IMG/VR virus record: IMGVR_UViG_3300037295_000263
Coordinates: 96,001 to 160,000 of that record
Direction: 5' to 3' (one strand)
Source: a virus
Lineage: Duplodnaviria; Caudoviricetes
DNA: 64,000 nt
Both the position numbers and the translations under genes were made by a program. This document shows, in pieces, positions 10,004 through 62,720 of this stretch (its first letter is position 1; each line of letters begins with the position of its first letter). A model generated the notes under the pieces. That model was not told the origin of the DNA. It saw nothing but the letters and a program-made list of their open reading frames with translations, and searched no databases.

Positions 10004-10181
10004 TTTTTATGCTTCCGCCGGTCAAAAGGTTTGTTCCTTTTAAATCAAGCGCATTCTTGGCAGTACCGTTTTTATTTTTTAGGGTCTTGCCAGGTTTATT
10101 TTTATAAACAGCACCAACTGATACATTTCCTGCGGAAGTAGCACCTGCTGTTGCTGTCTCTAAAATATCTCGTATTTTCAT
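9999..10181 (-). CDS. Small putative internal virion protein (CTS-like N-terminus MKIRDILE)
   Basis: Start reassigned to 10181, 5 nt after GATAAATA; MKIRDILE|TATAG. Confidence 0.6.
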   Translation of the reverse strand: MKIRDILETATAGATSAGNVSVGAVYKNKPGKTLKNKNGTAKNALDLKGTNLLTGGSIKR

Positions 10182-10186
10182 ATTAT

Positions 10187-10194
10187 TATTTATC
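10187..10194 (-). promoter_or_regulatory. Late promoter, leaderless configuration
   Basis: GATAAATA-ATAAT-ATG. Confidence 0.65.
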
Positions 10195-10203
10195 ATAATG
10201 CTG

Positions 10204-10779
10204 CTACAAATTGCTGTTAAATTCCGGCCCTTGCAAGGTAGTGTTTGTTACTTTTTGTATAAGTTGCCATGCTAATCCTAATTTCTTCTTTTCCAATAAC
10301 TCTTTAAATATTGCTTTTTCTTCTTCGTTAGCAGACTTATAAAATTTCATAACTTCCATCATGCCAATATTTCCCTTATAACTGGCTTCGTGAGTAATAC
10401 TTTCGCCACCTCCGCCGTCGCCTCCCATAGTTCCGCTATATCCTGTATTAAACCCGTATCCTCCGTACCCCCATGCAGCACCACGAGCTTTTTTCTTTTT
10501 GCGAAATCTTTTACGTTCTTGTATGCTTTCGTCTGTATCTTTGTGCCAATAAAGAGAATTAGAATCGTAAGGCGGTGGGGCAAGATTGCGAAGCGTGCTT
10601 TTTTGTGCAGCATTGACTGCTTTGCTTCTTGCAGCAAGCGCCATTCTTTTTAAGGTTTCTGGGTCTTTTCTTTGTAATGCAGGAAAGGCACTAGTTTGAA
10701 AATGCTGTACCCACGTCGAAATGCTGTCGTTTGCAGTTGGTTTGATTCTGGATTCGACAGTAAATTCGCATGCTCTCAT
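10204..10779 (-). CDS. Putative internal virion protein (CTS-like N-terminus MRACEFTVE)
   Basis: Start at 10779 overlaps the erpA stop (ATGA); basic RKRFRKKKK patch and Gly-rich GYGGYG...GGDGGGGE segment. Confidence 0.6.
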
Positions 10780-11099
10780 ACATTGAAGCTGCTTCCGCAC
10801 CCGCATGTAGATTGTGCATTTGGATTACTAATGCTAAAAGAAGACCCCATGACATCTTCGGTATAGTCGATAACTGCTCCATACAAATACTGCATGCTCA
10901 TACAATCTACTAATAACTTAGTGTCGCCTAGGACTACTTCAAAATCGTCGTCTGATTGCTCGTCGTCGAATGTAAATCCGTATTGAAAACCACTACATCC
11001 TCCGCCTTGAACAAATGTTCGTAGTTTTAATTCAGGTTTCCCTTCTTCATGAAATAAGTCTAATATTTTAGATTTAGCTGATTCAGTAATGTTAATCAT
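10776..11099 (-). CDS. erpA: A-type Fe-S carrier, ErpA/HesB family
   Basis: [11 protein letters not shown] and C-terminal CGCGSSF motifs. Confidence 0.92.
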
Positions 11100-11107
11100 G
11101 TTTAATG

Positions 11108-11299
11108 TTATCCTGCAGCTTGGACAGATAACGACTTTTTGTGTTTATCGATTCCTTGCTTTGCTGCTTTTTTCTTGTTAGTGTGAGAACCTGCGCCGCC
11201 GCCGCCGATAGTAGCAGACGCATTTTTAGCAACGGGATTTCGTGGCTTAGCAGGTACAAGATTTTTTTTTAATTCAGTAATAAATTCGATAGCTCTCAT
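11108..11299 (-). CDS. Small basic putative internal virion protein (MRAIEFITE)
   Basis: Start 11299 lies 5 nt after GCTAAATA; N-terminus resembles T4 CTS MKTYQEFIAE. Confidence 0.65.
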
Positions 11300-11303
11300 A
11301 GTA

Positions 11304-11564
11304 CTATTTAGCATCTCCGAACCAATGTTTAAACCATTCGTCTGTTCCTGGTTTTATACTATTCTCCCTTGCTACTTGTCCTTTATTGCTGCCCTGTATG
11401 ACAGGTAGTGTTAAACTTCTATATGCAGATAGCGCAGCCTCTCCTCCTAATCCACCTAGCTGTCCGACAGCTTTTAATTGGTGGATTGGATCATCCGATG
11501 ATAATATACAATCATGGTCTTCTGACTGAGTTATATTTGCTGTTGTAATTCTAAATTGTTTCAT
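11304..11564 (-). CDS. Hypothetical protein
   Basis: Probable start MKQFRITT at 11564 (GGAA upstream); ends IKPGTDEWFKHWFG. Confidence 0.65.
   Translation of the reverse strand: MKQFRITTANITQSEDHDCILSSDDPIHQLKAVGQLGGLGGEAALSAYRSLTLPVIQGSNKGQVARENSIKPGTDEWFKHWFGDAK
11305..11312 (-). promoter_or_regulatory. Late promoter, leaderless configuration
   Basis: GCTAAATA-GTACT-ATG. Confidence 0.65.
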
Positions 11565-14431: not shown

Positions 14432-14788
14432 TTAAACACTATATCGAATTACATCAATTGTACCGTCCTGGATGCAAAATGCAGCTCGGATCCATACAAA
14501 GTTTCCTGTAAAGTTACGACTAGTATACACGGTTAACGGAACATTGTCAATTGATTCCACAGGAAGCCCGTTATCGTATTCTATATCAAACCAGTCTTTT
14601 TCACCAGGGTGTAGAATTAATGTACCTTGTAGCTTAACCTGACCTTTAAAATCATTAATTTGAAATATTGCAGTGTGTAGCGGAAATTCTTTACGATAGT
14701 ATCCAGCACCTTTCTGTTCTTTAGAATAAAGAAAGTTTTCAGAAATCGTACTGGCAGAATTTAATAAGATGATATTTTCAGTGGCCAT
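14432..14788 (-). CDS. Hypothetical (probably virion-associated) protein
   Basis: 118 aa, beta-rich; GATAAATA-ATGTT-ATG start. Confidence 0.7.
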   Translation of the reverse strand: MATENIILLNSASTISENFLYSKEQKGAGYYRKEFPLHTAIFQINDFKGQVKLQGTLILHPGEKDWFDIEYDNGLPVESIDNVPLTVYTSRNFTGNFVWIRAAFCIQDGTIDVIRYSV

Positions 14789-14793
14789 AACAT

Positions 14794-14801
14794 TATTTAT
14801 C
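14794..14801 (-). promoter_or_regulatory. Late promoter, leaderless configuration
   Basis: GATAAATA-ATGTT-ATG. Confidence 0.65.
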
Positions 14802-14818
14802 AGATAATATACGTGAAA

Positions 14819-14850
14819 GTGGGGCTCATTATTTGTATAATGTGCCCCAC
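14819..14850 (-). terminator. Hairpin, probable terminator after clpA
   Basis: GTGGGGC-A-CATTAT-ACAA-ATAATG-A-GCCCCAC followed by TTT on the minus strand. Confidence 0.6.
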
Positions 14851-14872
14851 TAGAATGTATAAATTTTACAAC

Positions 14873-17185
14873 TTACACTTGGTATATTTGCTCTTCGACC
14901 TTATTTAAAACTTTCTTTTTTCGAGGTGCTCTAGCAATTTTCATGCTTTTTTCTCTAAAAGTAAATTTAGGGCGATCTTCTTCGATAGTAACATCCACAT
15001 ACCCGCCATTTACCAATGCCCCGAATAATACTTCACGGCTCAGTGGAGATTTGATTTCGTTGTCGATTACCCGACCTAGCGGTCTAGCCCCCATCTTGCT
15101 ATCATAGCCTTTTTCGGATAACCACTTGTTTGTTGCATCATCGATGATAATTTCAATATTCTTATCATATAATTGTTCGTTAAGTTCTTTAATAAATTTC
15201 TCAACAATCTTATGCACAATTTTTGTATCAAGTTTAGCAAATTTAATGATACCATCTAATCGATTGCGGAACTCCGGAGGGAAGAATTTTTTAATAGCTT
15301 TATCGTCCTCGCCGTCTTTTGATAAATCGCCAAATCCGATAGTGTTATTTTCGTTATCGCGGGCACCTAAATTTGAAGTCATAATAAGAATGCAATTACG
15401 ACCATCAGCTTGTTTTCCATTCGATCCTGTGACAAATCCGTTATCCATAAACTGCAAAAGAATATTGCTAACATCCGAGTGGCTTTTTTCAATTTCGTCT
15501 AATAACAGCACACAGTTAGGATGTTCTTGTAGCTTAGTAATTAGCTGTCCAGCGTTGTCTTCATATCCTACATAGCCCGGAGGAGAGCCAATTAATCTAG
15601 AAACGGAATGCTTTTCTTGATATTCGCTCATGTCAAACCTTATCAATTCCATGCCCATTTTTTGGGCTAAGGCTTTAGCAGTCTCTGTTTTGCCTGTACC
15701 AGTAGGTCCAGAAAACAAGAAACTTCCTATGGGCCTATTGGGGTTTTTCATGCCTGCCTGCGATACAAAAATTTTGTCTAATAAAGTCTCAACTGCAGTA
15801 TTTTGCCCGTAAACTATCGATTTTAGATTATTTTCTAAATTAGCAAGGTTGTTGCTTTCTTTTTGAGCAACATTTTCCAATGGAATGTTAATCATCTTGC
15901 TTAATTCATAAACAATTTGTTCAACATCTACAATCTGCGTAATTCCTTCTTCGGCAGGATCATCTTTAAGTTTATATCGAGCAGCAGCACAGTCGAGTAT
16001 ATCGATGGCTTTATCTGGAAGTTTTTTGTCTGCCATGTATTTTACACTTAACTTTACTGCCTGTTCGATAGCACCGTCTGTGATTTTTACATTATGGTGT
16101 TGTTCGTAATATCTTTTAATACCTTTAAGTATTTTAACTGTAATTTCGGGAGTAGGTTCGTCGATAGTAACCCGCTGAAACCGGCGCATTAGTGCTCTAT
16201 CTTTTTCAAAATGCTTTCGGTATTCTTCCCAAGTTGTGCTAGCAATCAGTTTAATCAGACCTTTAGTTAACATGGGTTTAATCATATTACTCATATCATT
16301 AGATCCTTGGTTAGACGATCCTGCACCTTGCATCATGTGCGCTTCATCAATAAACAGGATAACTTTTCCTTTTTTCTCTAAAGCAGCCATAACCGACTTA
16401 ACTCTTTCTTCAAAGTCTCCTCGATATTTTGACCCTGCTAACATAGCACTAATGTCTAATGTATAAACTTCGTGATCAAGAATAAACTTAGGAACTTTTT
16501 TCTCAAATATTTTTCGAGCAATACCTTCCGCAATGGCTGTTTTACCTACGCCAGGGTCACCGACCATAAGAACATTACTTTTGTTACGTCGAGCCAATAC
16601 TAATTGTATTTTTTCAATTTCTTCATCTCGTCCAATTACCGGGTCAATTTTACGTTGCTTTGCTAACGCAGAAAGGTTTGTACAATAAGTGTTGATGACT
16701 TGATCGATTTGAGATTTATTTGGCTGGCTTGTACTATCGTTTGCTGCCTCGGGAAGATTTTCTTGACAATGCTTAATTAATTTTTCCTTAGTAAGACCGG
16801 CCTTAGACATAAAATAAAAACTAAAGCTATTCTTTTCGCTAAGAATGCTTAGTAACAAATCGGAAATGTTTATGTTTTCTCGGTTATTAAATAATACTTG
16901 CGTAAAACAACGGTTTAACACACGCTCAACCGAATTAGTTTTTTTAGGCTTCACCTCTTCATGATCAACTTTAATATCGTTAAGATTTGAAATAATGTAT
17001 TGATCAATATTTGCTTTAATAAATTTCGAATCTGCTCCTGCTTTCTTAATTAATTCGAACGAATCCTCATCCTGCATTATAGAATGTACTAAATGTTCGA
17101 TAGTTATGTATTCGTGTTTATGTAGAGTCGCTAACTCTACAGATTTATCAAAAATCTCTTGCAATTTTTTACTAGGTTCAATCAT
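14873..17185 (-). CDS. clpA: ATP-dependent Clp protease ATPase subunit ClpA
   Basis: Clp N-domain (HEYITIEHL); two AAA+ modules GDPGVGKT/FIDEAH and GPTGTGKT/LLDEIEK; GSPPGYVG; no ClpB middle domain. Confidence 0.93.
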   Translation of the reverse strand: MIEPSKKLQEIFDKSVELATLHKHEYITIEHLVHSIMQDEDSFELIKKAGADSKFIKANIDQYIISNLNDIKVDHEEVKPKKTNSVERVLNRCFTQVLFNNRENINISDLLLSILSEKNSFSFYFMSKAGLTKEKLIKHCQENLPEAANDSTSQPNKSQIDQVINTYCTNLSALAKQRKIDPVIGRDEEIEKIQLVLARRNKSNVLMVGDPGVGKTAIAEGIARKIFEKKVPKFILDHEVYTLDISAMLAGSKYRGDFEERVKSVMAALEKKGKVILFIDEAHMMQGAGSSNQGSNDMSNMIKPMLTKGLIKLIASTTWEEYRKHFEKDRALMRRFQRVTIDEPTPEITVKILKGIKRYYEQHHNVKITDGAIEQAVKLSVKYMADKKLPDKAIDILDCAAARYKLKDDPAEEGITQIVDVEQIVYELSKMINIPLENVAQKESNNLANLENNLKSIVYGQNTAVETLLDKIFVSQAGMKNPNRPIGSFLFSGPTGTGKTETAKALAQKMGMELIRFDMSEYQEKHSVSRLIGSPPGYVGYEDNAGQLITKLQEHPNCVLLLDEIEKSHSDVSNILLQFMDNGFVTGSNGKQADGRNCILIMTSNLGARDNENNTIGFGDLSKDGEDDKAIKKFFPPEFRNRLDGIIKFAKLDTKIVHKIVEKFIKELNEQLYDKNIEIIIDDATNKWLSEKGYDSKMGARPLGRVIDNEIKSPLSREVLFGALVNGGYVDVTIEEDRPKFTFREKSMKIARAPRKKKVLNKVEEQIYQV

Positions 17186-17679
17186 TTTAGGTTCTTCCTT
17201 AGTTTCTTCATAGCTAATTGTAATTTCAAAGGCGATACGTTGTCAACGAAGCAAACACCATTCAAGTGATCCAGCTCATGTTGAAAACATCTAGCAACGT
17301 ATCCGTCCATAGTCACTGTGTGCGTGTTGGCGTTGCTATCTTGGTATTCTGCAGTTATTTTTGAAGGTCGTTTAACGTTCAAATACAGTCCTGGATAACT
17401 AAGACATCCTTCTCGAAACAAGCTAGTTTCGGTACTTTCTTCGAGAATAACGGGATTGAATACACCAAATGGCATTGGAAATCCGTCGATGTTAAAACTG
17501 CCCATTACAAAAACACGATCGGTTAGCCCAATTTGATTAGCAGCCAGACCAATGCCGTTATTCGATATCATCAAGTTTATCATATCTTGTTCGAGTTGTT
17601 TTGCATTGTTATTTACAGAAAAATCCCAAGCTGTACTGGACATAACTAGACTTTCATGTTCTCCTAAATTATACTCCAT
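17182..17679 (-). CDS. def: Peptide deformylase
   Basis: GIGLAANQIG, EGCLS and QHELDHLNG motifs. Confidence 0.96.
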   Translation of the reverse strand: MEYNLGEHESLVMSSTAWDFSVNNNAKQLEQDMINLMISNNGIGLAANQIGLTDRVFVMGSFNIDGFPMPFGVFNPVILEESTETSLFREGCLSYPGLYLNVKRPSKITAEYQDSNANTHTVTMDGYVARCFQHELDHLNGVCFVDNVSPLKLQLAMKKLRKNLK

Positions 17680-20782: not shown

Positions 20783-21293
20783 CTGTAATATCCTGTATTT
20801 TTTGTTCTGTGCTGTCTTTACTGGAGGCTTGTATAGTTTGTTGGTTAACAATGTCAGCTACTTTATTTTGGTCAAGATTTCGGTAACCTCTATTAATATC
20901 GTTCATAAGCTTCTTAGGAATAGTTATGCGAACACTCCAAATAGGGGAATAATCGATTTTACCTTTACGAGTTCCTGCTCGAATATCCTCTGGTTTTTTA
21001 ATTTTTCTAACACTTGCTATTTTACTTTCGGCAAATTCTACCTTGCATCCGTAATCAATTAGCCGTGTGCCGGCTGTTGGATCAGGCATTTTGTCGTATG
21101 GCCACATAAATGTACATTCGACAAAGTATCTTTTTTCGTACGGACCACTGACTAATTCCCCATCTATCCAGTTATCGTAAACATACATGTCTAGTTCATC
21201 TAACACTCTTTCAAAATCTTTGAGTAAATTTAAACTATTGTTAGATCCGTATATTTGCTCAATGTTTTGAATAATATCTTTAATATCGGCCAT
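20757..21293 (-). CDS. Hypothetical phage protein
   Basis: 178 aa; SD GAGGAG; late motif GATAAATA at 21310-21317. Confidence 0.75.
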   Translation of the reverse strand: MADIKDIIQNIEQIYGSNNSLNLLKDFERVLDELDMYVYDNWIDGELVSGPYEKRYFVECTFMWPYDKMPDPTAGTRLIDYGCKVEFAESKIASVRKIKKPEDIRAGTRKGKIDYSPIWSVRITIPKKLMNDINRGYRNLDQNKVADIVNQQTIQASSKDSTEQKIQDITDEELPTDI

Positions 21294-21309
21294 AATTTCT
21301 CCTCAAATG

Positions 21310-21317
21310 TATTTATC
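21310..21317 (-). promoter_or_regulatory. Late promoter motif GATAAATA
   Basis: Followed 5 nt later by GAGGAG (SD) and ATG 21293. Confidence 0.55.
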
Positions 21318-21357: not shown

Positions 21358-21365
21358 GTTAAATA
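21358..21365 (+). promoter_or_regulatory. Late promoter, leaderless configuration
   Basis: GTTAAATA-AGATT-ATG (ATG at 21371). Confidence 0.55.
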
Positions 21366-21370
21366 AGATT

Positions 21371-21421
21371 ATGCCAGAAACAAATAAAACGTTTGTAACT
21401 GCATATTCCAAGGAGGATTAA
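21371..21421 (+). CDS. Putative 16-aa leader peptide/uORF upstream of phoH
   Basis: MPETNKTFVTAYSKED*; its last codons contain AAGGAGG, the SD of phoH. Confidence 0.4.
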   Translation: MPETNKTFVTAYSKED

Positions 21422-21427
21422 CCTTAC

Positions 21428-37011: not shown

Positions 37012-37016
37012 ACAAC

Positions 37017-37024
37017 TATTTAGT
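37017..37024 (-). promoter_or_regulatory. Late promoter, leaderless configuration
   Basis: ACTAAATA-GTTGT-ATG. Confidence 0.65.
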
Positions 37025-38118: not shown

Positions 38119-38123
38119 AATTA

Positions 38124-38131
38124 TATTTATC
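38124..38131 (-). promoter_or_regulatory. Late promoter, leaderless configuration
   Basis: GATAAATA-TAATT-ATG. Confidence 0.65.
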
Positions 38132-38174
38132 GCTTTTTTTAAAGTGTAAATAATATACAAGGAGAATTAACACT

Positions 38175-49375: not shown

Positions 49376-49400
49376 TGCCGCGTTTATTAAATAATACTAG

Positions 49401-51139: not shown

Positions 51140-51726
51140 ACATAGATACAGATCACTTGCATTATTGGATGCAAGCAATACGTCAGAGCACAGATCCTAT
51201 GCGTACTATGGATGCGTTTTGGTCAGGACAAATTAAAAGCAAAGAATGGCTAATTAGTTGTTTAACACAATATGTAAACAAACCGGTGACTATAGATATA
51301 CACGGTGGATGGGTTGGCACTTTAGCAAGTTTATTATTTCAAAGCAGTCTTCCTATAAAACACATTAATAGCATCGACATAGATCCATGTGTGAATTCGA
51401 TTGCTATTAACATGAATAAACTAGAAGAAATAGAAGGAAGATTTCAAGCGTTTACAGCAGATATGTGCAACACTCATTCAGTTGCAGATATTATTATAAA
51501 TACTAGCTGCGAACATATTACCCAAGAACAATACAATACGTGGCTTAAGAATCAGCCAACCGATAGTATATTACTAGTACAAAGTAACAATTACGATATA
51601 CCTGAGCATATAAGAACAGCAAGTTCCTTAGATCATTTTGTTGAACAAAGCAACCTGGATGTATCATTAGCAGTAGAACTAACATTACCGTTATATAAAA
51701 GATTTATGATTATCGGAAAAAAATAG
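51136..51726 (+). CDS. Class I SAM-dependent methyltransferase-like protein
   Basis: IDIHGGWVG, SIDID and IINTSCEH. Confidence 0.7.
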   Translation: MNIDTDHLHYWMQAIRQSTDPMRTMDAFWSGQIKSKEWLISCLTQYVNKPVTIDIHGGWVGTLASLLFQSSLPIKHINSIDIDPCVNSIAINMNKLEEIEGRFQAFTADMCNTHSVADIIINTSCEHITQEQYNTWLKNQPTDSILLVQSNNYDIPEHIRTASSLDHFVEQSNLDVSLAVELTLPLYKRFMIIGKK

Positions 51727-51802
51727 CATATCTGTTTTGTTTATAGGTTAAATTTTCTTTGATAATTAAGTGTACAACATTACTTTTAAACTTAAAAATT
51801 AT

Positions 51803-52723
51803 ATGAAAATTTTAATAACAGGAACTTCAGGGTTCATCGGTTCGCATTTGTCAACGTTTCTGGCAGTGAACAATGCAGTACACTCGCTAACGAGCGATTT
51901 GCTAGACCATGCAGCAGTACAAGAAGAAGTAAAATCTATATCTCCCGATATCATTGTACACTTGGCAGCAAGAACAGAAGTAGAAAAAAGCTTTTACGAA
52001 CAAGTAACATTTAGCGAAATAAATTATGTAGGCACAGTCAATCTAATTGAAGCTGCTGCCAAAGTAAAAAATTTAAAAAACTTTGTATTCGCTAGTACTA
52101 TGGAAGTATACGGGTGGCAGCCAATTAGCGACGAAGTTCAGTCACATAGTATTCCACAGACATTTATTTCATTCGATGAAAATACTCAGCCTAATCCGAA
52201 TGCTCCGTATTCTGTAGCTAAGTATGCTTGTGAAAAATATTTACAGTATGCCCATAGATGCTTAGGACTCCCGTTTACAATTATACGTCAAACAAATGCA
52301 TACGGTCGCAGAGATAATGTATTTTTTGTAACTGAACAAATTATTACACAAATGCTAAATTGTCCTACTGAAATAAATCTAGGATACTCCGAACCTTATA
52401 GAAATTTTATTTTTATCACCGACTTATTAGCAGCATGGCAAGTAGTTGTTGGCAACCCCGCGAAAGTTAATGACGGCAAAATTTTTACCATCGGGCCTGA
52501 CAATCCTATCAAAATACGAGACTACGCTAATCTAATTGCTAAAAAGCTAAATTGGAATGGGCAAATTAATTGGGACACTAAACCGCATCGTCCAGGAGAA
52601 ATATTTTGGTTAAATAGCAATCATAACTTGATTACAGAGCTTACCGGGTGGAAACCTGAAGTTAGCTTAGATACCGGACTAGATTTAACTATCGACATTT
52701 GGAAACAAAAAATTAAAAAATGA
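51803..52723 (+). CDS. NAD-dependent epimerase/dehydratase (extended SDR, NDP-sugar)
   Basis: ITGTSGFIG, VHLAA, YSVAK (YxxxK), NAYG and HRPGE; probable start 51803. Confidence 0.93.
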   Translation: MKILITGTSGFIGSHLSTFLAVNNAVHSLTSDLLDHAAVQEEVKSISPDIIVHLAARTEVEKSFYEQVTFSEINYVGTVNLIEAAAKVKNLKNFVFASTMEVYGWQPISDEVQSHSIPQTFISFDENTQPNPNAPYSVAKYACEKYLQYAHRCLGLPFTIIRQTNAYGRRDNVFFVTEQIITQMLNCPTEINLGYSEPYRNFIFITDLLAAWQVVVGNPAKVNDGKIFTIGPDNPIKIRDYANLIAKKLNWNGQINWDTKPHRPGEIFWLNSNHNLITELTGWKPEVSLDTGLDLTIDIWKQKIKK

Positions 52724-53403
52724 CTACTAAAAACTGGAAACCTTATCTCAAGTTAGGTGCTAACGGTTTTCCGTGCATGGCACAGCAGACGTATGAACCA
52801 CTAGTAAGCCCTGACGGAGATACATTTTGTAAAAATTATAACTTTCCAAATAACTATCAGTATTTAGAAACTAAAGATAGACCGTTATATACTCAAGAAG
52901 TAGTTGACTGGTTTTTCCAAAACGAAGTAAGATGGATTGAATATTTTAAAAACAAACCATACAGTCCTGAAATAATCGACATTGATTTCAAACGTAAAAA
53001 AATATTCTTAAAATGGTATAAAGAATCGTGCAACCAAGTAATGTTTTCCGGCAGAAGTTGGCCTACTGAATGGCTAGATAAAATAAAAAATATAATTCTA
53101 GACCAGTATGCTACAGGAGTGTATAAATTAACCATGTATCCACATTGTCACTATATCGACAGTCACGACAACATGCGAGCAATCGATTGGTACGGATGTG
53201 TGTTAGTGGCAAATCCGTACATAGAAGAAAAATACATGCAAGGGATTATTCACGAAACTGCACAATTTCGATTAGATGAAACAGGATCTGCTATCGATAA
53301 TAAACTAAATTTAGAGATTATGTTTAAAAGAAGTTTAGGACAACATGTTATGTGGGGAGAACAAAACATGAGTTATATATACAAGGAATTATTCGATGCC
53401 TAA
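52720..53403 (+). CDS. Kinase-like fold protein (tentative)
   Basis: E-helix FQNEV, YPHCHYID and AIDWYG (DFG-like). Confidence 0.4.
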   Translation: MTTKNWKPYLKLGANGFPCMAQQTYEPLVSPDGDTFCKNYNFPNNYQYLETKDRPLYTQEVVDWFFQNEVRWIEYFKNKPYSPEIIDIDFKRKKIFLKWYKESCNQVMFSGRSWPTEWLDKIKNIILDQYATGVYKLTMYPHCHYIDSHDNMRAIDWYGCVLVANPYIEEKYMQGIIHETAQFRLDETGSAIDNKLNLEIMFKRSLGQHVMWGEQNMSYIYKELFDA

Positions 53404-53977
53404 GTTTATTTGCAATACTAATAATTTTATAAACTGGAATAATTTTATAGAAACTATCGACTATCACGGCAGTGTTATGCCTAACTTCTTATTTGATGTG
53501 TCAAAAACTATAGAAGAAAATTTAGTTATAGAAGTACCAGAAGGAAAAGGATTGCCTACTGATGATTACACATCCATCGAAAACACTACTCGGTCTCCAT
53601 TTAACTGGCATTCGGTAAATTGGACTGACTATAACTTAGAACACTCTGCAATCGTTGACAAGATTTCTTTATATTTAGAAGTAAATGTGCTGCGATCATT
53701 TGTTTCAAAAGTAGATCCCGGTATCTGTGTTCCGTTGCACTGGGACATCGGAGATGTACAATTTAGGACCAAGGATAACTTAGATAAAATATTCAGATAT
53801 ACTTGTTTCATACGTCCGCCTGTAGCAGGACAGACATTTTCGGTCGATCAGCATTGCTTTTATAACGAAAAAGAAGGAAACTTGTACGAGTGGAACCACT
53901 ACACCGATGTGCATTCTACATTCAATGCCAGCACAGAACCACATTATATATTCCATCTAGTAGGCGAGAAAAAATGA
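53396..53977 (+). CDS. Fe(II)/2OG oxygenase, Asp/Asn beta-hydroxylase-like
   Basis: PLHWD...HSTFN (HxD...H). Confidence 0.7.
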   Translation: MPKFICNTNNFINWNNFIETIDYHGSVMPNFLFDVSKTIEENLVIEVPEGKGLPTDDYTSIENTTRSPFNWHSVNWTDYNLEHSAIVDKISLYLEVNVLRSFVSKVDPGICVPLHWDIGDVQFRTKDNLDKIFRYTCFIRPPVAGQTFSVDQHCFYNEKEGNLYEWNHYTDVHSTFNASTEPHYIFHLVGEKK

Positions 53978-54561
53978 AAATTAAATTAATAGGAAATACT
54001 GCAGACTTAATCGATTGGGATCGTATTATATTAACATGTCAAGAGAATTTCGAAAATTCCGACAAAAATACGGTTACCTCAGTAGTAGACCGAAGTGAGG
54101 CTGGAGATTCAACAGAAGACAATTGGTTATTAGATAATTACCGATCTGTAATTGGTAATTGGAAAAATGCAGGATATAACTTATCAGAAATAGTGTGGTA
54201 CGACTATTATCCAGGGCAACACTTTCCGATGGAGATACAGGAAGTATTTTCTAAATTTGTCGGAGCTGAACCGTTGCGTGTTTTTATTAGCGAAGTTCTT
54301 CCAGGCGCAGTTATTCCTTATCACTGGGACGTGGAAGATAAAGAACAAGAATGGCTTGCAAATTATGGACAATTGTACAGATATGTATGTTGCATAGATA
54401 AACCCAAAACTGGTGCTGGGCTGTTTTTCGATGAAGATTACTTATATCTTAATAAACAAGGAGATGTTTACGAATGGGCCAATTATAAAGATCATCATTC
54501 TAGTGCAAATTCAGGGGAGCATCCATCATATTACTTCCACTTTTTAGGATACAAAAAATGA
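53974..54561 (+). CDS. Fe(II)/2OG oxygenase, Asp/Asn beta-hydroxylase-like
   Basis: PYHWD...HSSAN; start reassigned to 53974 (ATGA overlap). Confidence 0.7.
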   Translation: MKIKLIGNTADLIDWDRIILTCQENFENSDKNTVTSVVDRSEAGDSTEDNWLLDNYRSVIGNWKNAGYNLSEIVWYDYYPGQHFPMEIQEVFSKFVGAEPLRVFISEVLPGAVIPYHWDVEDKEQEWLANYGQLYRYVCCIDKPKTGAGLFFDEDYLYLNKQGDVYEWANYKDHHSSANSGEHPSYYFHFLGYKK

Positions 54562-55106
54562 AATATATTGGAAATTGTAGTAACATTATTGATTGGGATA
54601 CTGTTATATCCAGTTTCGAATTTGCAACTCCTTCTTATGTAGGACCTAGCCACAAAAAAGGCGACAACATTCCTGGATTAGACGAAGTTGCTGACTTATG
54701 GGAACGAGCAAAATTTAGAACAGTTCACGACGACTCTAATGGTACTGTGGGATGGGATATGTTTTTATCTGGAAAAGATTTTGACGAAAGAATCACAGAG
54801 AAATTTTTAAATTTTGTAAACGTTCCTGGATACACTTCTTGTTGGATAAGCAGAATTAATATAGGAAAGATGGCTCCGTGGCATTGGGACGTAAATGATA
54901 ACGAAGAACAATTATCAAAAGAACCTGAAAAGAAAAGATTTCACTGTCATATAGGTAAACCTCAACACGGGCATGTCTTTTTACTAGAAGACCAGTGCTT
55001 TTATAATCAAAAACAAGGAGCAACTTACGAATGGTCTGCAAGAACATTGTGGCATGCAGGTATGAATTCCGGATTAACTCCCAAATACATTTTAAACTTA
55101 TGGTAA
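54558..55106 (+). CDS. Fe(II)/2OG oxygenase, Asp/Asn beta-hydroxylase-like
   Basis: PWHWD...HAGMN. Confidence 0.7.
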   Translation: MKYIGNCSNIIDWDTVISSFEFATPSYVGPSHKKGDNIPGLDEVADLWERAKFRTVHDDSNGTVGWDMFLSGKDFDERITEKFLNFVNVPGYTSCWISRINIGKMAPWHWDVNDNEEQLSKEPEKKRFHCHIGKPQHGHVFLLEDQCFYNQKQGATYEWSARTLWHAGMNSGLTPKYILNLW

Positions 55107-55110
55107 CATT

Positions 55111-55713
55111 ATGATGGTTGAAAAAGAAATATTAAATATGCCCCGCATTTCTGTTTTTACTAACGTACTAAGCGACGAAGAATCTGACTACATTGTCGAC
55201 AAATATTCTAAAATAGGATTGAATCCAGTAGCAGGTATGGAATCGAGACAGCAAACGTATGGGCAAATTACAGAAGAAGTAGAACAACGTAGCATTAGTT
55301 GGGACACTTCAATAGAAGATAAAGATTTATTTAAAAATAAGTTGTTGCAAGCAGTAGGAATTCCAGTAAGTCATATCGAAGCTGGTGATATTTACAAATA
55401 CGATCCAGGGCAGGAATTCGGTCCACACCATGATTTTCCATACGTTCCGAAAAAAGTTCCTTATTATCAAAATGGTGGTGACAGAGCTGCTACTGCAATA
55501 TTTTGGCTTAATGACGGGTATACTGGAGGGGAGCTAATTTTTCCATTATTAGATATTCGAATAACTCCAGTCAAGAATGGATTAGTGTATTTTGAATACG
55601 ATTACGATGACGAAATATTAAACATGTCGACATGGCATAAAGCACTGAGTGTTAGGCATAATCCAAAATGGATTGCAGCATTTTTCTGTGCCAATGGCCC
55701 TCGTGTAGAGTAA
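55111..55713 (+). CDS. Prolyl 4-hydroxylase-like 2OG-Fe(II) oxygenase
   Basis: YKYDPGQEFGPHHD, DRAAT, WLND...GGEL.FP and HKALSV...KW. Confidence 0.88.
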   Translation: MMVEKEILNMPRISVFTNVLSDEESDYIVDKYSKIGLNPVAGMESRQQTYGQITEEVEQRSISWDTSIEDKDLFKNKLLQAVGIPVSHIEAGDIYKYDPGQEFGPHHDFPYVPKKVPYYQNGGDRAATAIFWLNDGYTGGELIFPLLDIRITPVKNGLVYFEYDYDDEILNMSTWHKALSVRHNPKWIAAFFCANGPRVE

Positions 55714-55714
55714 T

Positions 55715-56734
55715 ATGTATCCTAGTAAATCTTCAGTAATACATATTGAGCTTACTGACAAGTGTCAAGCTAGTTGTCCTATGTGTGCTAGAAATATCAA
55801 CGGAGGTGCCGAAAGAAACTTTGTTGGCAACAATGAAATTACACTTTCCCAGTTTAAAGCATGGTTTCCTGCAGAATTTTTATCTAACGTAGTTAATTTT
55901 TATGCTTGCGGAAATTACGGAGACCCTATTATTGCTAAAGACTGTTTGGAAATTTTTGAATATGTCAGAAGTGTTAACAACGAATGCCGATTATCTATCC
56001 ATACAAACGGTAGTGCTAGGTCTACAGAATGGTGGAAGAAATTAGCAAACGTGTTAGGCGATCACCATATGGTAACATTTGGAATCGATGGATTCTCTGA
56101 TAGTCATAAATTATATCGCAGAGGAACAGATTGGCATAAAATTATTGAAAATGCATGTGCATTTATTAGTGTCGGAGGTAAAGCAGAAATAGATTGTTTA
56201 GTTTTCAAGCATAACGAAAACGAAGTAGACGAATTCAAAAGACAAATGCTCGAGAAGGGATTCTTTAAAGTAAATTTAAAATATACAAGAAGGTTCTATG
56301 ACATGCTAGCATTTCCTGTTCAAGATAAATCTGGTAACTTTGAATACAATCTCGAGCCGGCAAGTTTTAAACAGAATGTACAATTTATACCTCTTGAAAA
56401 AATTAGTAAAGATATTAAAATATGGGAACGTACTGTTGAGGCTTCGGAAATATCTCCTAAATGCATCAGTAATAACGAAATGTACATCGATGCTCGCGGC
56501 AACGTGTTTCCTTGTTGCTGGATCGGTTCTGATTTAATAGAGGAACCGATTGTAGAAAAAATGCCAATTCAAAAATTGAGAAATTTAGTAGTAGAAAATT
56601 CTAAAGATAAATTTTCAAAATATGCAATGGGTAATCTTAATGAAACAGAAATTTCAAAAATTATTTGGTATAACTTCGACAGCTTTATAAAAAATGAAAA
56701 ACCTTGGACTTGTGTGAAAAATTGTAATGGATAA
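55715..56734 (+). CDS. Radical SAM enzyme with SPASM/twitch domain
   Basis: CQASCPMC, CGNYGDP; C-terminal PKC...PCCW...CVKNC. Confidence 0.92.
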   Translation: MYPSKSSVIHIELTDKCQASCPMCARNINGGAERNFVGNNEITLSQFKAWFPAEFLSNVVNFYACGNYGDPIIAKDCLEIFEYVRSVNNECRLSIHTNGSARSTEWWKKLANVLGDHHMVTFGIDGFSDSHKLYRRGTDWHKIIENACAFISVGGKAEIDCLVFKHNENEVDEFKRQMLEKGFFKVNLKYTRRFYDMLAFPVQDKSGNFEYNLEPASFKQNVQFIPLEKISKDIKIWERTVEASEISPKCISNNEMYIDARGNVFPCCWIGSDLIEEPIVEKMPIQKLRNLVVENSKDKFSKYAMGNLNETEISKIIWYNFDSFIKNEKPWTCVKNCNG

Positions 56735-58139
56735 AATATTTTGGCTGCAACCCGCTGAAAGTAAAATTGGTCAGTGGCAAAACAGGATAAAAACTTTAAG
56801 TAACAGTGATACATTTTGTGTGTTGCCATGGATTCATTTTGCTACTAGGCCAAATGGAGATATGCGACTATGTTGCAACAGCAACTCTAGTGGTGCTGGT
56901 GGAGATCATGAAATTGGATTAGTTAAAAATGAAACAGGGCGTCCTGCTAATTTTGGAAAAGAAACTCCAATGAGCGCATGGAACAACGACTATATGAAAT
57001 CAGTCAGAACAACCATGCTAAGTGGAAATATTCCGGCAAGCTGCAAAAAATGTTTCGACGAAGAATCTAAAGGAGTAGCCAGCAAGCGTATATGGGAAAC
57101 TGCAACGTGGGTTGAAGAAGGTATTAGCATTGAAGAGCTTGTTGCAGAAACACAACAAGACGGAACTGTTCCTGAAAAATTAGTCTACTTAGATCTCAGG
57201 CTGGGACATACTTGCAACTTAAAATGTATTATGTGCAGTCCGCACGATAGTAGCAAATGGGTAGCGGATCATAAGAAAGTATTTCCGTTATTTCAAAATA
57301 GCGAATTAAAAAGGCAAATGCAATGGGACCAATCATCATTTAATAATAAATGGCACGAAAATCCAGATTTTTGGAAAGAAATGTATTCTCAAATTCCTAA
57401 TCTTCGTCAAGTATATTTTGCTGGTGGCGAACCGTTAATGATTAAAGAACATAAAACATTTCTAGAAGAAATTGTGCGACAAGGCTATGCTGACAAAATA
57501 TTAATAAGGTATAATACAAACGGATTATTAATCGATGATGATATGATCGAGCTGTGGACTAAATTTAAAAAAGTAAAAGTAGGTGTGAGTATCGATGCAG
57601 TAGGAGAACGTAATCACTATATTAGATATCCAACTGACTGGAAAACAATAGTATCAACTTTACATAAGCTAGATAATAGTCCTATCAATATTCAAACTAG
57701 TATTGCAACAGCTATCCAAATACTCAACATTAAACATTTACCCGAGTTGGCAAAATGGAAAATACAACAAGGATTTAAAAAGATAAATTTTGAAAATGTC
57801 ACCGGCGGAATAGAAGCTGGCGGCGGTATATTCAATATGCATTTGTTGTATATACCTACTTACTTGAGTATACGATGTTTGCCCGAGCAAGATAAAATAG
57901 AAGTAAGAAAGAAGTTTGCAGAATTTGCAGATTGGTTATACAACAACTATAGAACTGACGAAGACTTTTGGAAAACTAACCCGTACGGATGGAAAAGGTG
58001 GCAGGCTATTTTAGATTTTATGAATAGTGAAGATCACACTCACTTACTTCCCGCCTTTCAAGAATATATCAACAAAATGGATTCTGTTAGAAAGATTAAT
58101 TGTAGCTACATATTTCCAGAGATTTCACATTTAATATGA
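56727..58139 (+). CDS. Radical SAM enzyme with N-terminal twitch-like domain
   Basis: FCVLPW...CCN...CKKC then CNLKCIMC and FAGGEPL. Confidence 0.92.
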   Translation: MDKIFWLQPAESKIGQWQNRIKTLSNSDTFCVLPWIHFATRPNGDMRLCCNSNSSGAGGDHEIGLVKNETGRPANFGKETPMSAWNNDYMKSVRTTMLSGNIPASCKKCFDEESKGVASKRIWETATWVEEGISIEELVAETQQDGTVPEKLVYLDLRLGHTCNLKCIMCSPHDSSKWVADHKKVFPLFQNSELKRQMQWDQSSFNNKWHENPDFWKEMYSQIPNLRQVYFAGGEPLMIKEHKTFLEEIVRQGYADKILIRYNTNGLLIDDDMIELWTKFKKVKVGVSIDAVGERNHYIRYPTDWKTIVSTLHKLDNSPINIQTSIATAIQILNIKHLPELAKWKIQQGFKKINFENVTGGIEAGGGIFNMHLLYIPTYLSIRCLPEQDKIEVRKKFAEFADWLYNNYRTDEDFWKTNPYGWKRWQAILDFMNSEDHTHLLPAFQEYINKMDSVRKINCSYIFPEISHLI

Positions 58140-59128
58140 AAAAAATTATTAAAATAGACTCTAATACTCCTTCAAATTTTTTAAGAATAGAATTATTTTT
58201 AAGTAATCTTTGTAACTACAAATGTTGGTATTGTTTTCCAGGATGTAATGAAGGAACAGTAAATTGGCCGGAATTAGAATTGTTGAAAAAAAATCTCGGA
58301 CACTTACTTAAATATTATAAAGACAAACAAAATAAAGAAGTAATACTTCTGCATATCATCGGGGGCGAGCCTACATTGTGGAGTAAATTGGGGGAATTTG
58401 TTAAGTATTTTAAAGAAATACATAATTGCTTAATTAGCATTTCAACGAACGGATCTAGGACTTATAGGTGGTGGGACGAATATGGACATTATATGGACCA
58501 CATTATGTTTAGTTGTCATCATGAAAATATGGATAACAATCATATTATAAAGGTAATGGACTTGCTATATTCCAAGGACGTTAATGTGTCTGCTATGGTA
58601 TTAATGGATGCTTATCAATGGGATAAATGTGTAAGCATTGTAGAAGATTTAAAAAATAGTCAGTATCGATGGTCAATTACAGCTATTAATTTAATCACTG
58701 ACAAGTTCAAGTACACTGATGAGCAAAAAAAATATCTCGAACATGCTGATAAAAGAATGCCAGATCTTGAGTACTGGCACCGAACTAATAAACGACCACG
58801 CGAAGACTCTACTATTACGTTCGACGATGGCGAACGACTACAAGTTAACGACAATTGGGTGGCGTTAAACAATTTAAATTATTTTTATAATTGGGAATGT
58901 TCTTTGGGTATTGAAACCTTTTATATCGACACTGACGGATACATTCGAGGAGCATGCAACCAATACTTATATAATTTAGATTATCGTTATAATATTTTCG
59001 ATTCTGATTTTACAAATTTATTTAAACCAAATATTGTTCCAGTAATATGCAAACGAGCCAATGCGTGTACTTGCCAACCAGAAATTAATGCATCAAAGAA
59101 AAAAATTATTCCTATAATTGCTTCTTAG
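58136..59128 (+). CDS. Radical SAM enzyme
   Basis: CNYKCWYC, IIGGEPT; C-terminal CSLG...AC...C...CTC. Confidence 0.92.
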   Translation: MKKIIKIDSNTPSNFLRIELFLSNLCNYKCWYCFPGCNEGTVNWPELELLKKNLGHLLKYYKDKQNKEVILLHIIGGEPTLWSKLGEFVKYFKEIHNCLISISTNGSRTYRWWDEYGHYMDHIMFSCHHENMDNNHIIKVMDLLYSKDVNVSAMVLMDAYQWDKCVSIVEDLKNSQYRWSITAINLITDKFKYTDEQKKYLEHADKRMPDLEYWHRTNKRPREDSTITFDDGERLQVNDNWVALNNLNYFYNWECSLGIETFYIDTDGYIRGACNQYLYNLDYRYNIFDSDFTNLFKPNIVPVICKRANACTCQPEINASKKKIIPIIAS

Positions 59129-59999: not shown

Positions 60000-61257
60000 A
60001 CGGTTTAAACTCTGGTATTGTTTCTAATAAATTTTGATTCCTGGTAGCATCTAATTGGTAGTTAAATTCTAAAAAATCTGGCCACAGATTAAATTGGTCT
60101 CTGGATTCGAGATAATTTATATTATCTCGAATTTGTTGTTGTGTTATGATTTCAAGCAACGGATATTTTGTAACAGCTTCCCAGGTGTTTACTTTTAAAC
60201 TAACTGCTTTTAATCTGTCTATTGCAATTATCTTTAAATCTGCAGGTAGCACTTGTGCCGATAGACAATTTGGATAACTCACTCTATGACTGTAAAATAC
60301 AATGCCCATCTTGTTAATAAAATAATCAATGCATTCCGCAGCTTGCAATATATTTCCAGCTTGGGCGGTGAACGCACCTACTACTCTACTTACATTGGGG
60401 ATTTTTTTTATTTCTTTAATGTTCTCTTCCACTTGAGAAAAGTCACCGTTGCCGCGAATGTAATTATAAACATCATGAATGCCGTCAATGCTGACATTAA
60501 CTGCAACACTTTTGAAATGTGGCCAATAGTCATGGACGGTTCTTCCTTTACTAATGCCTAGAGTAGTTCCATTAGTAGCATATTTAATTTCGATATTTTT
60601 ACCATAGGGTTTCAACATGTCCAATATACGGTAATGTTGCGGATCCATTAATGGCTCGCCTCCTGCAAATTCTACCCTTCTAAAATAAGGTAATAATTTC
60701 TTAAAGCTATCCCACCAGTTATCACTATCGTCAAACGCTCCTATATATTGTCCAGGCGATTTAACAAGCTTTTCAATTGTAGGCACAAGGTAATTATTTT
60801 CTTTTTTATAAAAAGGAACTACTTTGTTCCAATCTTTCCAATTAGTGCTATCTAACGGATTGCACATTCGACATTTAAGATTGCACAAGTTGTTTAGTTT
60901 AATTTCCATTGTAGGAAATTCAAATGGCATCGAGTAGTCTTCTCGTAATGTATCTAAAGCATTGGGATACAAATTAATCCTAGCTTCGGGTATAATACCT
61001 TTTATGTGACGTTGACGTAGACTTTCTACTCCTTGGTCTTCTAGATCAAAACACGGTTTGCATACATCTGCACGTTCTCCGCATAAGACTTTTTTTCGTA
61101 CATCTTTAATAATGTCGTTATTCCAAATTTCTTCCAAAGTATTATCTTGAATGTTTCCAATTGGCGCACTTCGACAACAGACTTTAACAGCCCCGTCTTC
61201 CCTTGTTGCTAATCCAGTAAACGGATGCATACAAAATGTTTTACTTTGTTTGTTCAA
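59992..61257 (-). CDS. Radical SAM enzyme with N-terminal twitch-like domain
   Basis: FCMHPF...CCR...CKPC then CNLKCRMC and FAGGEPL; probable TTG start ~61257 overlapping the upstream stop (ORF track gives 61308). Confidence 0.9.
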   Translation of the reverse strand: MNKQSKTFCMHPFTGLATREDGAVKVCCRSAPIGNIQDNTLEEIWNNDIIKDVRKKVLCGERADVCKPCFDLEDQGVESLRQRHIKGIIPEARINLYPNALDTLREDYSMPFEFPTMEIKLNNLCNLKCRMCNPLDSTNWKDWNKVVPFYKKENNYLVPTIEKLVKSPGQYIGAFDDSDNWWDSFKKLLPYFRRVEFAGGEPLMDPQHYRILDMLKPYGKNIEIKYATNGTTLGISKGRTVHDYWPHFKSVAVNVSIDGIHDVYNYIRGNGDFSQVEENIKEIKKIPNVSRVVGAFTAQAGNILQAAECIDYFINKMGIVFYSHRVSYPNCLSAQVLPADLKIIAIDRLKAVSLKVNTWEAVTKYPLLEIITQQQIRDNINYLESRDQFNLWPDFLEFNYQLDATRNQNLLETIPEFKPYA

Positions 61258-62011
61258 TTGCCCACTCTCTTTCTTTGCACCAAAAGCACTTTCCACATAC
61301 TGGAACAAGCTGATGGTGTAGATAATTAGTATAATCTAATCCTTCAATTATGCCTTCGCAACTACGAGTAATTGACAATAAATCAGTGATTCCTAAACGG
61401 GAATATTGTTTTATAATCCAATCTTTAGTTGTAAATCTAAATGGATGACATGCAATTATACCTAAATGATTCATTATAGTCAAGTGAAAGTTTTCTTTAC
61501 AAGGTTCTGCATCTCTAGTAGGCATTCCTCCCGAAACTACAGGTGGATTTTTTGTAACAGCATTAAAGTATGCAGGAATATCGTTAGTAGTGCATACATA
61601 TTCAGTAAATGCTCTTAACTCTATGTTATCTCCACTAACTAGCTTTCCGTACTCATCTAGCATAGTCGGTCCGGTATCTCCCCATTCAAACTCCGGAGGT
61701 ATAAAATTTTTATGTAAAAAAAATTTAATATTGGTAAATCTATCATTAAAATACGTAACAACTTCTGCTGCAATATGTTGTTGCCACGGTTTTGTCTTCC
61801 ATTCTCGTATACTGTTAATGAAATGAACTTCTACTGACAAATCGAATTCTGTTATTATTTGACATATTAAAAATGCCAACATCGCACTGTCTGCGCCACC
61901 GCTTAACGCAATGCTTACTTTTTTCCAAGATTTGTCGAAAGGAATTATTTGTCCGTCTATTTCGTGCATAATTTTATTGTACGGACTATCATTATATAGT
62001 TGTTGTATCAT
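61241..62011 (-). CDS. QueC-like PP-loop ATPase (7-cyano-7-deazaguanine synthase-like)
   Basis: IALSGGADS PP-loop and TRSC...CGKCFWC Zn motif as in QueC; start reassigned to 62011. Confidence 0.7.
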   Translation of the reverse strand: MIQQLYNDSPYNKIMHEIDGQIIPFDKSWKKVSIALSGGADSAMLAFLICQIITEFDLSVEVHFINSIREWKTKPWQQHIAAEVVTYFNDRFTNIKFFLHKNFIPPEFEWGDTGPTMLDEYGKLVSGDNIELRAFTEYVCTTNDIPAYFNAVTKNPPVVSGGMPTRDAEPCKENFHLTIMNHLGIIACHPFRFTTKDWIIKQYSRLGITDLLSITRSCEGIIEGLDYTNYLHHQLVPVCGKCFWCKEREWAIEQTK

Positions 62012-62016
62012 GATAA

Positions 62017-62024
62017 TATTTACA
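62017..62024 (-). promoter_or_regulatory. Late promoter, leaderless configuration
   Basis: TGTAAATA-TTATC-ATG (62011). Confidence 0.65.
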
Positions 62025-62038
62025 CAGGATCGACAGTG

Positions 62039-62046
62039 CATAAATA
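62039..62046 (+). promoter_or_regulatory. Late promoter, leaderless configuration
   Basis: CATAAATA-TTTTC-ATG (62052). Confidence 0.65.
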
Positions 62047-62051
62047 TTTTC

Positions 62052-62720
62052 ATGTTATCTAAAACTATTCACACTGTGCCATTATCTATAATAGATAATG
62101 CTATTGAAGAAATGCCTTTAGTAGATTTTAAAATGCCATTAAATGCGCCTTCTGGGAATTTCTTCTACGATCCCTGGCATATTCGCCCTGAATTTGTAGG
62201 ATCTATATGGGAAACTATTTTAAATACTTTACCTTTTGATTTAGGGGAAGCACGCATTATTAAATTAGAACCTGGAAATAGTTATCTAAGCCACGCTGAC
62301 ATAGACGATAGATGGCACTTGTCATTGACTGGAAATAGATCATATTTAATTGATCTAGATAGCCATAAGGTTCACTTATTAAAAAAAGACGGGATATGGT
62401 ACAAGATGAATGCTGGCAAGTTACACACTGCTTCTAACTTTGGCCAAATACCTCGATATCAGCTAGTAGTAAGAAAGCTATTAAAAAATAGCTGCTTAAC
62501 TAATGTAAAATTGGTAAAAATTGAACCTGCATACCCACAATTTGACTATCGATATACATTTGATAATACAATAAGCCCTTGGCTAAACTACGCAGCCAAA
62601 CAACATTATCTTTTAAATTTTTCAGTAAATGAATCGACAGTTCAATTTCATTTATTAGAATCTCAAATTAGTAGTTTAAATGGTATTTTAACTAATAATT
62701 TTAAAGTAACTTATGAATAA
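62052..62720 (+). CDS. Fe(II)/2OG oxygenase-like (Asp/Asn hydroxylase-type) protein
   Basis: ARIIKL.PG, SHADIDDRWH and HTASN; start reassigned to 62052. Confidence 0.7.
   Translation: MLSKTIHTVPLSIIDNAIEEMPLVDFKMPLNAPSGNFFYDPWHIRPEFVGSIWETILNTLPFDLGEARIIKLEPGNSYLSHADIDDRWHLSLTGNRSYLIDLDSHKVHLLKKDGIWYKMNAGKLHTASNFGQIPRYQLVVRKLLKNSCLTNVKLVKIEPAYPQFDYRYTFDNTISPWLNYAAKQHYLLNFSVNESTVQFHLLESQISSLNGILTNNFKVTYE

Follow-up and report, generated by a model that had tools for sequence, protein, structure and literature searches.

The stretch of DNA analysed here, referred to as the window, is 64,000 nucleotides (nt) long and comprises bases 96,001–160,000 of the IMG/VR virus record IMGVR_UViG_3300037295_000263. 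It carries a set of genes whose ATG start codon lies only a few nucleotides downstream of the hexamer TAAATA, the core of the phage T4 late promoter. The whole record is 216,704 bp long with 35.8% G+C (64% A+T), and is estimated by CheckV to be ~59% complete. Its DNA polymerase belongs to the T4 family, the nearest cultured phages being Sinorhizobium phage Phosso and Agrobacterium phage Atu_ph07 (46–51% identity). Megablast of a 10-kb piece of the window against deposited phage genomes gave no match, and IMG/VR contains hundreds of relatives of this phage. Coordinates are those of the window unless marked as genome, in which case they refer to the record. The number of nucleotides between the box and the ATG is given as N4, N5 and so on, and a box 4–7 nt before its start codon is referred to as fused.

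Genes with a TAAATA box at their start codon

The initial annotation of the window listed eight TAAATA-N5-ATG sites, and all eight 14-mers are present, with position and strand confirmed. Real genes begin at seven of these ATGs; the remaining one, at 21371, belongs to the phoH leader and is described with it below.

Five of the seven genes lie on the minus strand in the first 39 kb. The fused unit at 10179–10192 (gATAAATAataatATG) consists of a TAAATA box at 10187–10192, a 5-nt spacer and an ATG at 10179–10181, which opens a gene of 60 amino acids (aa) at 9999–10181; 11 of 13 orthologues retain both a box at N4–N7 and the same start methionine. The unit at 11297–11310 (cTAAATAgtactATG) heads a 63-aa gene (11108–11299), and its box overlaps the TAG stop codon of the upstream gene. 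Orthologues of this gene share the start methionine but have AGGA-type Shine-Dalgarno (SD) sequences in place of the box, so the 11299 box is peculiar to this genome and, among the seven, has the least support. The unit at 14786–14799 (gATAAATAatgttATG) precedes a 118-aa gene (14432–14788) with a weak match to a virion-structural PHROG. At 37009–37022, cTAAATAgttgtATG heads a 205-aa gene (36394–37011) with no in-frame start upstream; two relatives of this gene were found, and the one examined has GATAAATAatagtATG, that is GATAAATA-N5-ATG, at the same methionine. Within their open frames, 14788 and 37011 are preceded by no other start codon, whether ATG or not.

The fifth unit, at 38116–38129 (gATAAATAtaattATG), belongs to a 307-aa NMO/IMPDH-like oxidoreductase gene (37195–38118), for which no relatives were found in IMG/VR. 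The start at 38118 is therefore placed by two features of the gene itself: it is the first ATG of its frame, the sole upstream in-frame candidate being a TTG 42 nt away, and the Pfam domain begins at residue 7. Its divergent partner on the plus strand (38147–38177) has a box at 38147–38152 followed by atatac, the SD AAGGAG and an ATG at 38175 that opens an 88-aa gene, and thus represents a minimal SD leader.

The two remaining genes form a back-to-back divergent pair at 62009–62054, in which a 40-bp intergenic region contains two boxes. The box at 62017–62022 on the minus strand is at N5 before the ATG at 62011 of a 256-aa PP-loop/QueC-like gene, and that at 62041–62046 on the plus strand is at N5 before the ATG at 62052 of a 222-aa gene. 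Both starts are already used by gene calls on a public contig. The starts at 10181, 11299, 14788, 37011 and 62052 coincide with residue 1 of their orthologues. Exact-protein look-up returned no match for the 14788 gene and one DNA contig only for the 62052 gene. The initial annotation held that the motif corrects several start calls; none is needed at 62011 and 62052, where the automatic calls agree, and 21371 is no gene start.

An additional fused unit that had not been listed, TAAATAatactagATG, is located at 49388–49403 on the plus strand; its box is at N7 before the ATG at 49401 of a 330-aa radical-SAM gene, the head of an operon that extends over 49401–59128. Within the island of tailoring enzymes, six divergent transcription units examined from 49 kb to ~71 kb in window coordinates have a first gene that bears a fused box: 49401 (N7), 62011 and 62052 (N5), 65047 and 65073 (N4), and a variant TAAGTA box at N5 before genome 166600. 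The 65047/65073 pair, just past the end of the window at genome 161037–161075 (window 65037–65075), is the tightest divergent pair, with two TAAATA boxes 4 bp apart in a 25-bp intergenic region and each at N4 from its own ATG (genome 161047 and 161073). The variant box, TAAGTA-gtatt-ATG at genome 166589–166602 (window 70589–70602, beyond the window), heads a radical-SAM-like gene, and no recognisable box was found for the opposite-strand unit that shares its intergenic region (ATG at ~genome 166560). Several relatives also have TAAGTA at N5–N7 ahead of their 62052 orthologue, so counts of the exact hexamer may underestimate the class.

Across the record ~16 of ~237 genes (~7%) are fused in this way, corresponding to about a third of box-associated starts, with eight in the window (seven N5 and one N7). 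The initial annotation described the arrangement as systematic, which overstates it: beyond these ~16 genes, the same box is followed by an SD leader of 15–45 nt at the genes examined for the baseplate and other virion proteins.

Spacing, start-site signature and conservation of the fused sites

The enrichment of the fused arrangement does not depend on gene calls. The window contains eight TAAATA-N5-ATG sites, compared to 2.33 +/- 1.35 expected from dinucleotide-preserving shuffles (maximum 6), and none of 100 shuffles reached eight or more (Poisson P ~0.003). When TAAATA-Nk-ATG was counted on both strands of the entire record without reference to gene calls, and hence free of any bias from the choice of starts, the histogram, a check named in the initial annotation, peaked at k=5, with 16 occurrences compared to a mean of 4.3 and a maximum of 13 at the other values of k from 0 to 39 (Poisson P ~1e-5); a second, broad bump is present at k=31–32. 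Permuted and other A/T-only hexamers, as well as single-mismatch variants of TAAATA, gave no comparable spacing peak. Fusion of host-type promoters to the ATG was also considered and rejected, as the σ70 box TATAAT and similar hexamers have no peak at any short spacing in the record.

Boxes that point at gene starts across the record (with genome 158052, window 62052, added by hand) are at N4 in three cases, N5 in ten and N7 in three, are absent from N8–N14, and reappear at 15–60 nt, where most are followed by an SD core. The empty interval fits two designs, one with no leader and the other with a leader long enough to accommodate an SD and its spacer. Spacers at the fused sites are 4–7 nt long, A/T-rich and devoid of an SD core. 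At SD-led starts, as the initial annotation had remarked, the SD can begin almost immediately: it starts 5–6 nt after the boxes at 21310–21315 on the minus strand and 38147–38152 on the plus strand. The former unit (21293–21315) consists of the box, cattt, the SD GAGGAG at the predicted +1 and an ATG at 21293 that opens the gene for a 178-aa virion structural protein. Among the relatives the onset of the SD after the box is sharp at N5, with counts of 1–13 at shorter distances followed by 27, 29, 41 and 48 at N5–N8, which brackets +1 at no more than 6 nt after the box.

Bacterial RNA polymerases favour start sites with a pyrimidine at −1 and a purine at +1. In keeping with this preference, position −1 is a pyrimidine at 15 of the 16 fused sites, compared to 48% of SD-led starts (P=1.4e-4), and at 93% of N5 sites in relatives. 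The start codon is equally restricted: all 16 fused sites in the record use ATG, and in the relatives N4 and N5 together yield 317 ATG, 11 GTG and 2 TTG, with 8 for the control CTG. Near-exclusive use of ATG is as expected if a 5'-terminal AUG is required for recognition by the ribosome.

The surroundings of several fused sites constrain where their transcripts could begin. The divergent intergenic regions of the 62011/62052 and genome 161047/161073 pairs, of only 40 and 25 bp, leave no room for another promoter, and the 38118 unit stands back to back with the SD-led 38175 gene. By folding, the boxes at 14788, genome 30861 and genome 210555 are each preceded by a stable hairpin that ends 4–31 nt upstream. 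The hairpin at 14818–14851 on the minus strand (AGTGGGGC...GCCCCACT) lies between the stop codon of a protease gene and the 14788 box and resembles a terminator without a T-run; the 70 nt upstream of this box fold with −23.8 kcal/mol. An 8-mer of this hairpin has six copies in the record, five of them non-coding, and is enriched in non-coding DNA. A simple consensus terminator scan gave no excess over shuffles, and missed this long-loop hairpin.

Around 45 orthologues of the 14788 gene, with 35–62% protein identity, retain GATAAATA at N4 or N5. In these genomes a ~230-aa gene that follows the ATP-dependent protease gene runs into the box, whereas the window genome lacks this gene and has the hairpin instead. 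The box is read in three different frames by the upstream gene (GAT-AAA-TAA, a TAA stop one frame over, and ATA-AAT), indicating that the constraint acts on the DNA and not on the protein. For the 62052 gene, ~40 orthologues retain ATAAATA at N4/N5, mostly as part of a divergent two-box module in which the sequence between the boxes differs. More broadly, a survey of 320 related loci for boxes at N4/N5 before open reading frames (ORFs) of at least 60 aa identified 14 or more gene families that each have at least three members. The possibility that the TAA of the box is merely the stop codon of the upstream gene was rejected, given its retention in three frames relative to that gene; the same proposal also fails at 10181, 14788, 37011, 38118, 62011 and 62052, where the upstream gene either ends at another position or, in the same orientation, does not exist.

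The box, the late-transcription genes and the phoH leader

No words are more over-represented in the non-coding DNA of the record than TAAATA, ATAAATA and GATAAATA, and the box can be written as (G/A)ATAAATA or NTAAATA. The initial annotation had invoked the full T4 octamer TATAAATA, which is nearly absent here, with three copies in the 216.7-kb record, none of them within 45 nt upstream of an ATG. The genes for the baseplate hub, a 1130-aa baseplate wedge protein, and tail-fibre-like and virion structural proteins follow boxes with SD leaders. The enrichment of the motif, its association with virion genes and the presence of a gp55-family sigma gene together suggest that, as proposed initially, the TAAATA box is very probably the gp55-type late promoter of this phage.

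The sigma gene is located at genome 40725–41570 on the minus strand, ~55 kb before the window, and encodes 281 aa that match phrog_12791 (E=2.5e-73), phrog_234 (E=3.8e-23) and T4 gp55 itself (E=1.1e-6). The part that resembles T4 gp55 begins at about residue 140, preceded by an N-terminal extension of ~130–150 aa. Immediately upstream of the DNA polymerase leader, at 8461–8727 on the minus strand, a small DNA-binding protein similar to T4 DsbA is encoded (phrog_639, E=2.9e-13; BLASTP against T4 DsbA, E=8e-5 over 67 colinear residues). According to the T4 genome annotation, DsbA facilitates transcription from some late promoters. For gp33, a small and divergent protein, the T4 query gave no match in the ~59%-complete record; the 99-aa ORF at 8162–8461 behind the DsbA-like gene, a candidate by synteny, was discarded because it is hydrophobic and unrelated. 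Searches of the same incomplete record for the gp45 clamp with T4 gp45, PF02916 and PF09116 returned nothing above threshold.

In T4, the late box occupies positions −13 to −6, as the initial annotation had quoted, and +1 is hence the sixth nucleotide after the box (PMC1524935). Four indirect observations fit this position here: the onset of the SD behind the box, the point at which the structured phoH leader begins in relatives, the pyrimidine at −1 and the near-exclusive use of ATG. The promoter and leader of phoH lie at 21360–21430 on the plus strand. The box at 21360–21365 is followed by a 57-nt leader with the SD AAGGAGG at 21409–21415 and the phoH ATG at 21428. The ATG at 21371, which had been presented as a gene start, begins a frame of just 16 codons that ends 7 nt short of the phoH ATG. 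Its presence within an ordinary phoH leader is due to chance, and it is not a leaderless start. A functional leaderless upstream ORF at this position was rejected, since a short ORF is found in only 9 of 60 relatives, and then at N3. The box itself heads a conserved leader, 69–78 nt before the phoH ATG, in 60 of 60 relatives. There, a conserved, partly covarying stem-loop begins at a G that is the sixth nucleotide after the box and is preceded by T (TAAATA-CTTTT-G...).

Between the box and the phoH SD, a distance of ~65 nt in the relatives, this conserved stem-loop, with a few compensatory changes, is joined by a small AAGG...CCTT hairpin over the SD. The window genome has kept the SD hairpin, and A/T-rich sequence replaces the 5' stem-loop. 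The phoH leader of one representative relative has no match in Rfam 15.

With regard to translation, a peptide deformylase is encoded at 17182–17679 on the minus strand (phrog_2890, E=5e-39), and in some relatives the deformylase-like gene itself has a fused N5 box. No phage-encoded IF1 or IF3 was found in the record. The first ~5.5 kb of the record differ from the remainder in that a crude gene caller gives mostly GTG- and TTG-start ORFs without SDs; the coding status of genome 1–5600 is doubtful.

Probable leaderless late messages and the alternatives

Our preferred explanation is that, for a defined minority of the genes of this phage, late boxes abutting start codons probably lead to mRNAs that are leaderless or nearly so. 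The host RNA polymerase carrying the phage gp55-family sigma would read TAAATA (consensus (G/A)ATAAATA), and as such a box would need no −35 element, it could sit directly against a coding region. At the ~16 genes with a box 4–7 nt before the ATG, transcription would most likely start on the A or 1–2 nt earlier, and the resulting messages would be translated through the recognition of an AUG at their 5' terminus, without SD pairing. The other late genes examined, for the baseplate and other virion proteins, would use the same box followed by a leader of 10–40 nt bearing an SD. That leaderless messages might resist SD-directed shutoff or toxins, as raised in the initial annotation, is a conjecture.

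Several observations weigh against this explanation. About 100 of the 237 genes of the record have no recognisable SD, even within operons, so that a missing SD at the fused sites is not diagnostic and translation of read-through transcripts is possible. Most fused genes of the window have a non-structural or an unknown function (NMO/IMPDH-like, PP-loop/QueC-like, radical-SAM and small genes) and are not classic late genes, so it is by the box that they are designated late. The 11299 box is not common to its orthologues, and neither gp33 nor the gp45 clamp was detected, although this negative is uninformative given a record that is ~59% complete. Relatives have N4 as often as N5, alternating within the same gene families, and the −1 pyrimidine rule is weaker at their N4 sites, at 67%.

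The alternation between N4 and N5 means that geometry cannot fix +1 to one base. The initial annotation had placed +1 on the A of the ATG, in agreement with T4 geometry, the onset of the SD and the phoH leader. Applied strictly at N4, T4 geometry would make the T of the ATG the +1 nucleotide, so that either the start site is flexible or the geometry is off by one base; alternatively, the polymerase may pick the A in both classes, or one class may have a 1-nt leader.

Chance is one competing account. The genome is 64% A+T, the initial annotation acknowledged that some starts were chosen with the motif in mind, and the ATG at 21371 did turn out to be a coincidence. For the class as a whole, chance is rejected by the gene-call-free shuffles and histogram and by conservation in dozens of relatives, leaving it a very improbable source of the pattern. 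It is also conceivable that TAAATA acts in translation, as an A/U-rich, SD-independent ribosome-recruiting or start-context element that binds, for example, ribosomal protein S1. The box does occupy the position of a ribosome-binding site (RBS), the host possibly makes little use of SDs, and enhancers rich in A/U exist. However, the peak is produced by the exact hexamer and not by other A/T-only hexamers or single-mismatch variants, and the same hexamer recurs at the 5' edge of the conserved phoH leader and, at a distance of 15–45 nt, ahead of virion genes that have an SD. It also matches the T4-family late box in a phage that encodes a gp55-family sigma, and in Deinococcus a −10 motif at the same position cannot be replaced by an RBS (PMC12340547). 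We therefore regard a purely translational role as improbable.

A closer competitor accepts the boxes as genuine late promoters and attributes their closeness to the ATG to compaction of the genome. On this view, longer transcripts from upstream would be the main source of the proteins, through SD-independent or coupled initiation, and the transcript beginning at AUG would be minor or poorly translated. Such an origin is in keeping with the many genes of this phage that lack an SD and overlap their neighbours, with the 14788-orthologue box that lies inside the end of an upstream co-directional gene in relatives, and with the 62011 orthologue, which has no box when it is within an operon. Yet compaction alone predicts neither a sharp N4/N5 peak nor the N8–N14 gap, the −1 pyrimidine or the ATG-only rule. 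Moreover, the divergent pairs 25–40 bp apart and the hairpins upstream of the box leave at least seven fused genes with no co-directional transcript from upstream. On this evidence compaction is an unlikely sole cause, and production of leaderless or near-leaderless late messages remains the explanation we favour.

The components of this arrangement, a T4-type late box and leaderless mRNAs, are already known. As in T4, the late promoters here have the core TAAATA and no evident −35 element, the phage has genes for a gp55-family sigma and a DsbA-like protein, and the box is found ahead of baseplate and virion genes (PMC1524935). They differ in the first two positions of the octamer TATAAATA, which are TA in T4 and (G/A)A in this phage, in the sigma factor, which here has 281 aa including the ~130–150-aa N-terminal extension, and in that gp33 and gp45 were not found in the ~59%-complete record. 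The T4 box and ATG are separated by an SD, whereas about a third of the boxes here abut the ATG; in a control count, the 32 TATAAATA boxes of T4 were mostly 21–29 nt before the next ATG, with one at N5. Positions −13 and −12 of the late box vary in RB49, KVP40, S-PM2 and Aeh1, the last of which uses CTAAATA (PMC1524935). The variant boxes, including those of RB49, KVP40 and S-PM2 with a variable −13, share the core TAAATA with variable flanks; they were published ahead of late genes with ordinary leaders, and fusion to a start codon is not described there.

The closest cellular parallel is found in Deinococcus-Thermus, where a −10 element 6–7 bp before about a third of ORFs gives leaderless mRNAs (Zhong et al. 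2025, PMC12340547). There, too, a −10-type box lies a few bp before the start without an RBS, is conserved in orthologues and has been used to re-annotate starts (PMC12340547). The differences are that in Deinococcus-Thermus the element is the TANNNT of the housekeeping sigma-A in a cellular genome, whereas here a phage late-sigma box is involved and ~7% of genes are affected.

Phage messages that begin at AUG also have precedents. Thermus phage phiYS40, a large myovirus, reportedly has leaderless middle and late transcripts, in work of 2007 attributed to Sevostyanova et al., and the lambda cI message from PRM is leaderless. These come from unrelated phages and from host σ70- or sigma-A-type promoters. 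In phage AR9, by comparison, 5' untranslated regions are 26–491 nt long, and the early-infection map of phiKZ obtained by differential RNA sequencing (dRNA-seq) did not detect leaderless transcripts. In full-text literature searches, no paper was found that connects leaderless mRNAs to late promoters of the gp55 type or of T4-like phages.

Among cultured phages, the same signature is present in HTVC008M, which infects Pelagibacter (SAR11). Its N5 peak is 14 against a background of 3.5 (P ~2e-5), and 13 of the 14 N5 sites open ORFs of at least 85 aa, often as TAAATAGTAnTATG. HTVC008M differs in being a marine member of the Kyanoviridae with a 147-kb genome, and is only distantly related. Literature searches found no transcript map of this phage, and the paper on the Melnitz/OM43 phage goes no further than a list of late promoters located with TATAAAT. 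Atu_ph07 has no clear N5 excess, with 15 matches compared to 9 in a reversed-pattern control. The first gene of Atu_ph07 (NC_042013.1, 244–747) is annotated as a translation initiation factor, in a genome without a fused-box excess.

A wider and more tentative proposal, possible though less likely than the explanation favoured above for this phage, is that a broad aquatic T4-like clade, comprising this phage, its hundreds of IMG/VR relatives and HTVC008M, runs a distinct leaderless late regulon. The gp55-type late sigma, which here has a long N-terminal extension, would initiate RNA synthesis precisely at the A of the AUG, and a defined subset of genes, including the heads of radical-SAM tailoring operons, would be translated late in infection through an SD-independent 70S-type route. 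If so, these phages would possess a second, separately tunable translation channel, and T4-type late promoters would serve as a direct tool for annotating start codons.

As the cultured SAR11 phage HTVC008M has the same signature, the arrangement is tractable at the bench. Should transcript mapping confirm it, this would be the first case in the T4 family of a late promoter fused to the start codon, in which the late sigma would set the start of the RNA as well as the mode of ribosome recruitment. With the box, start codons and transcription units could then be called cheaply and accurately across thousands of genomes of uncultured aquatic myophages, and its existence raises the question of whether leaderless messages form a separately regulated class of translation late in the infection of streamlined hosts.

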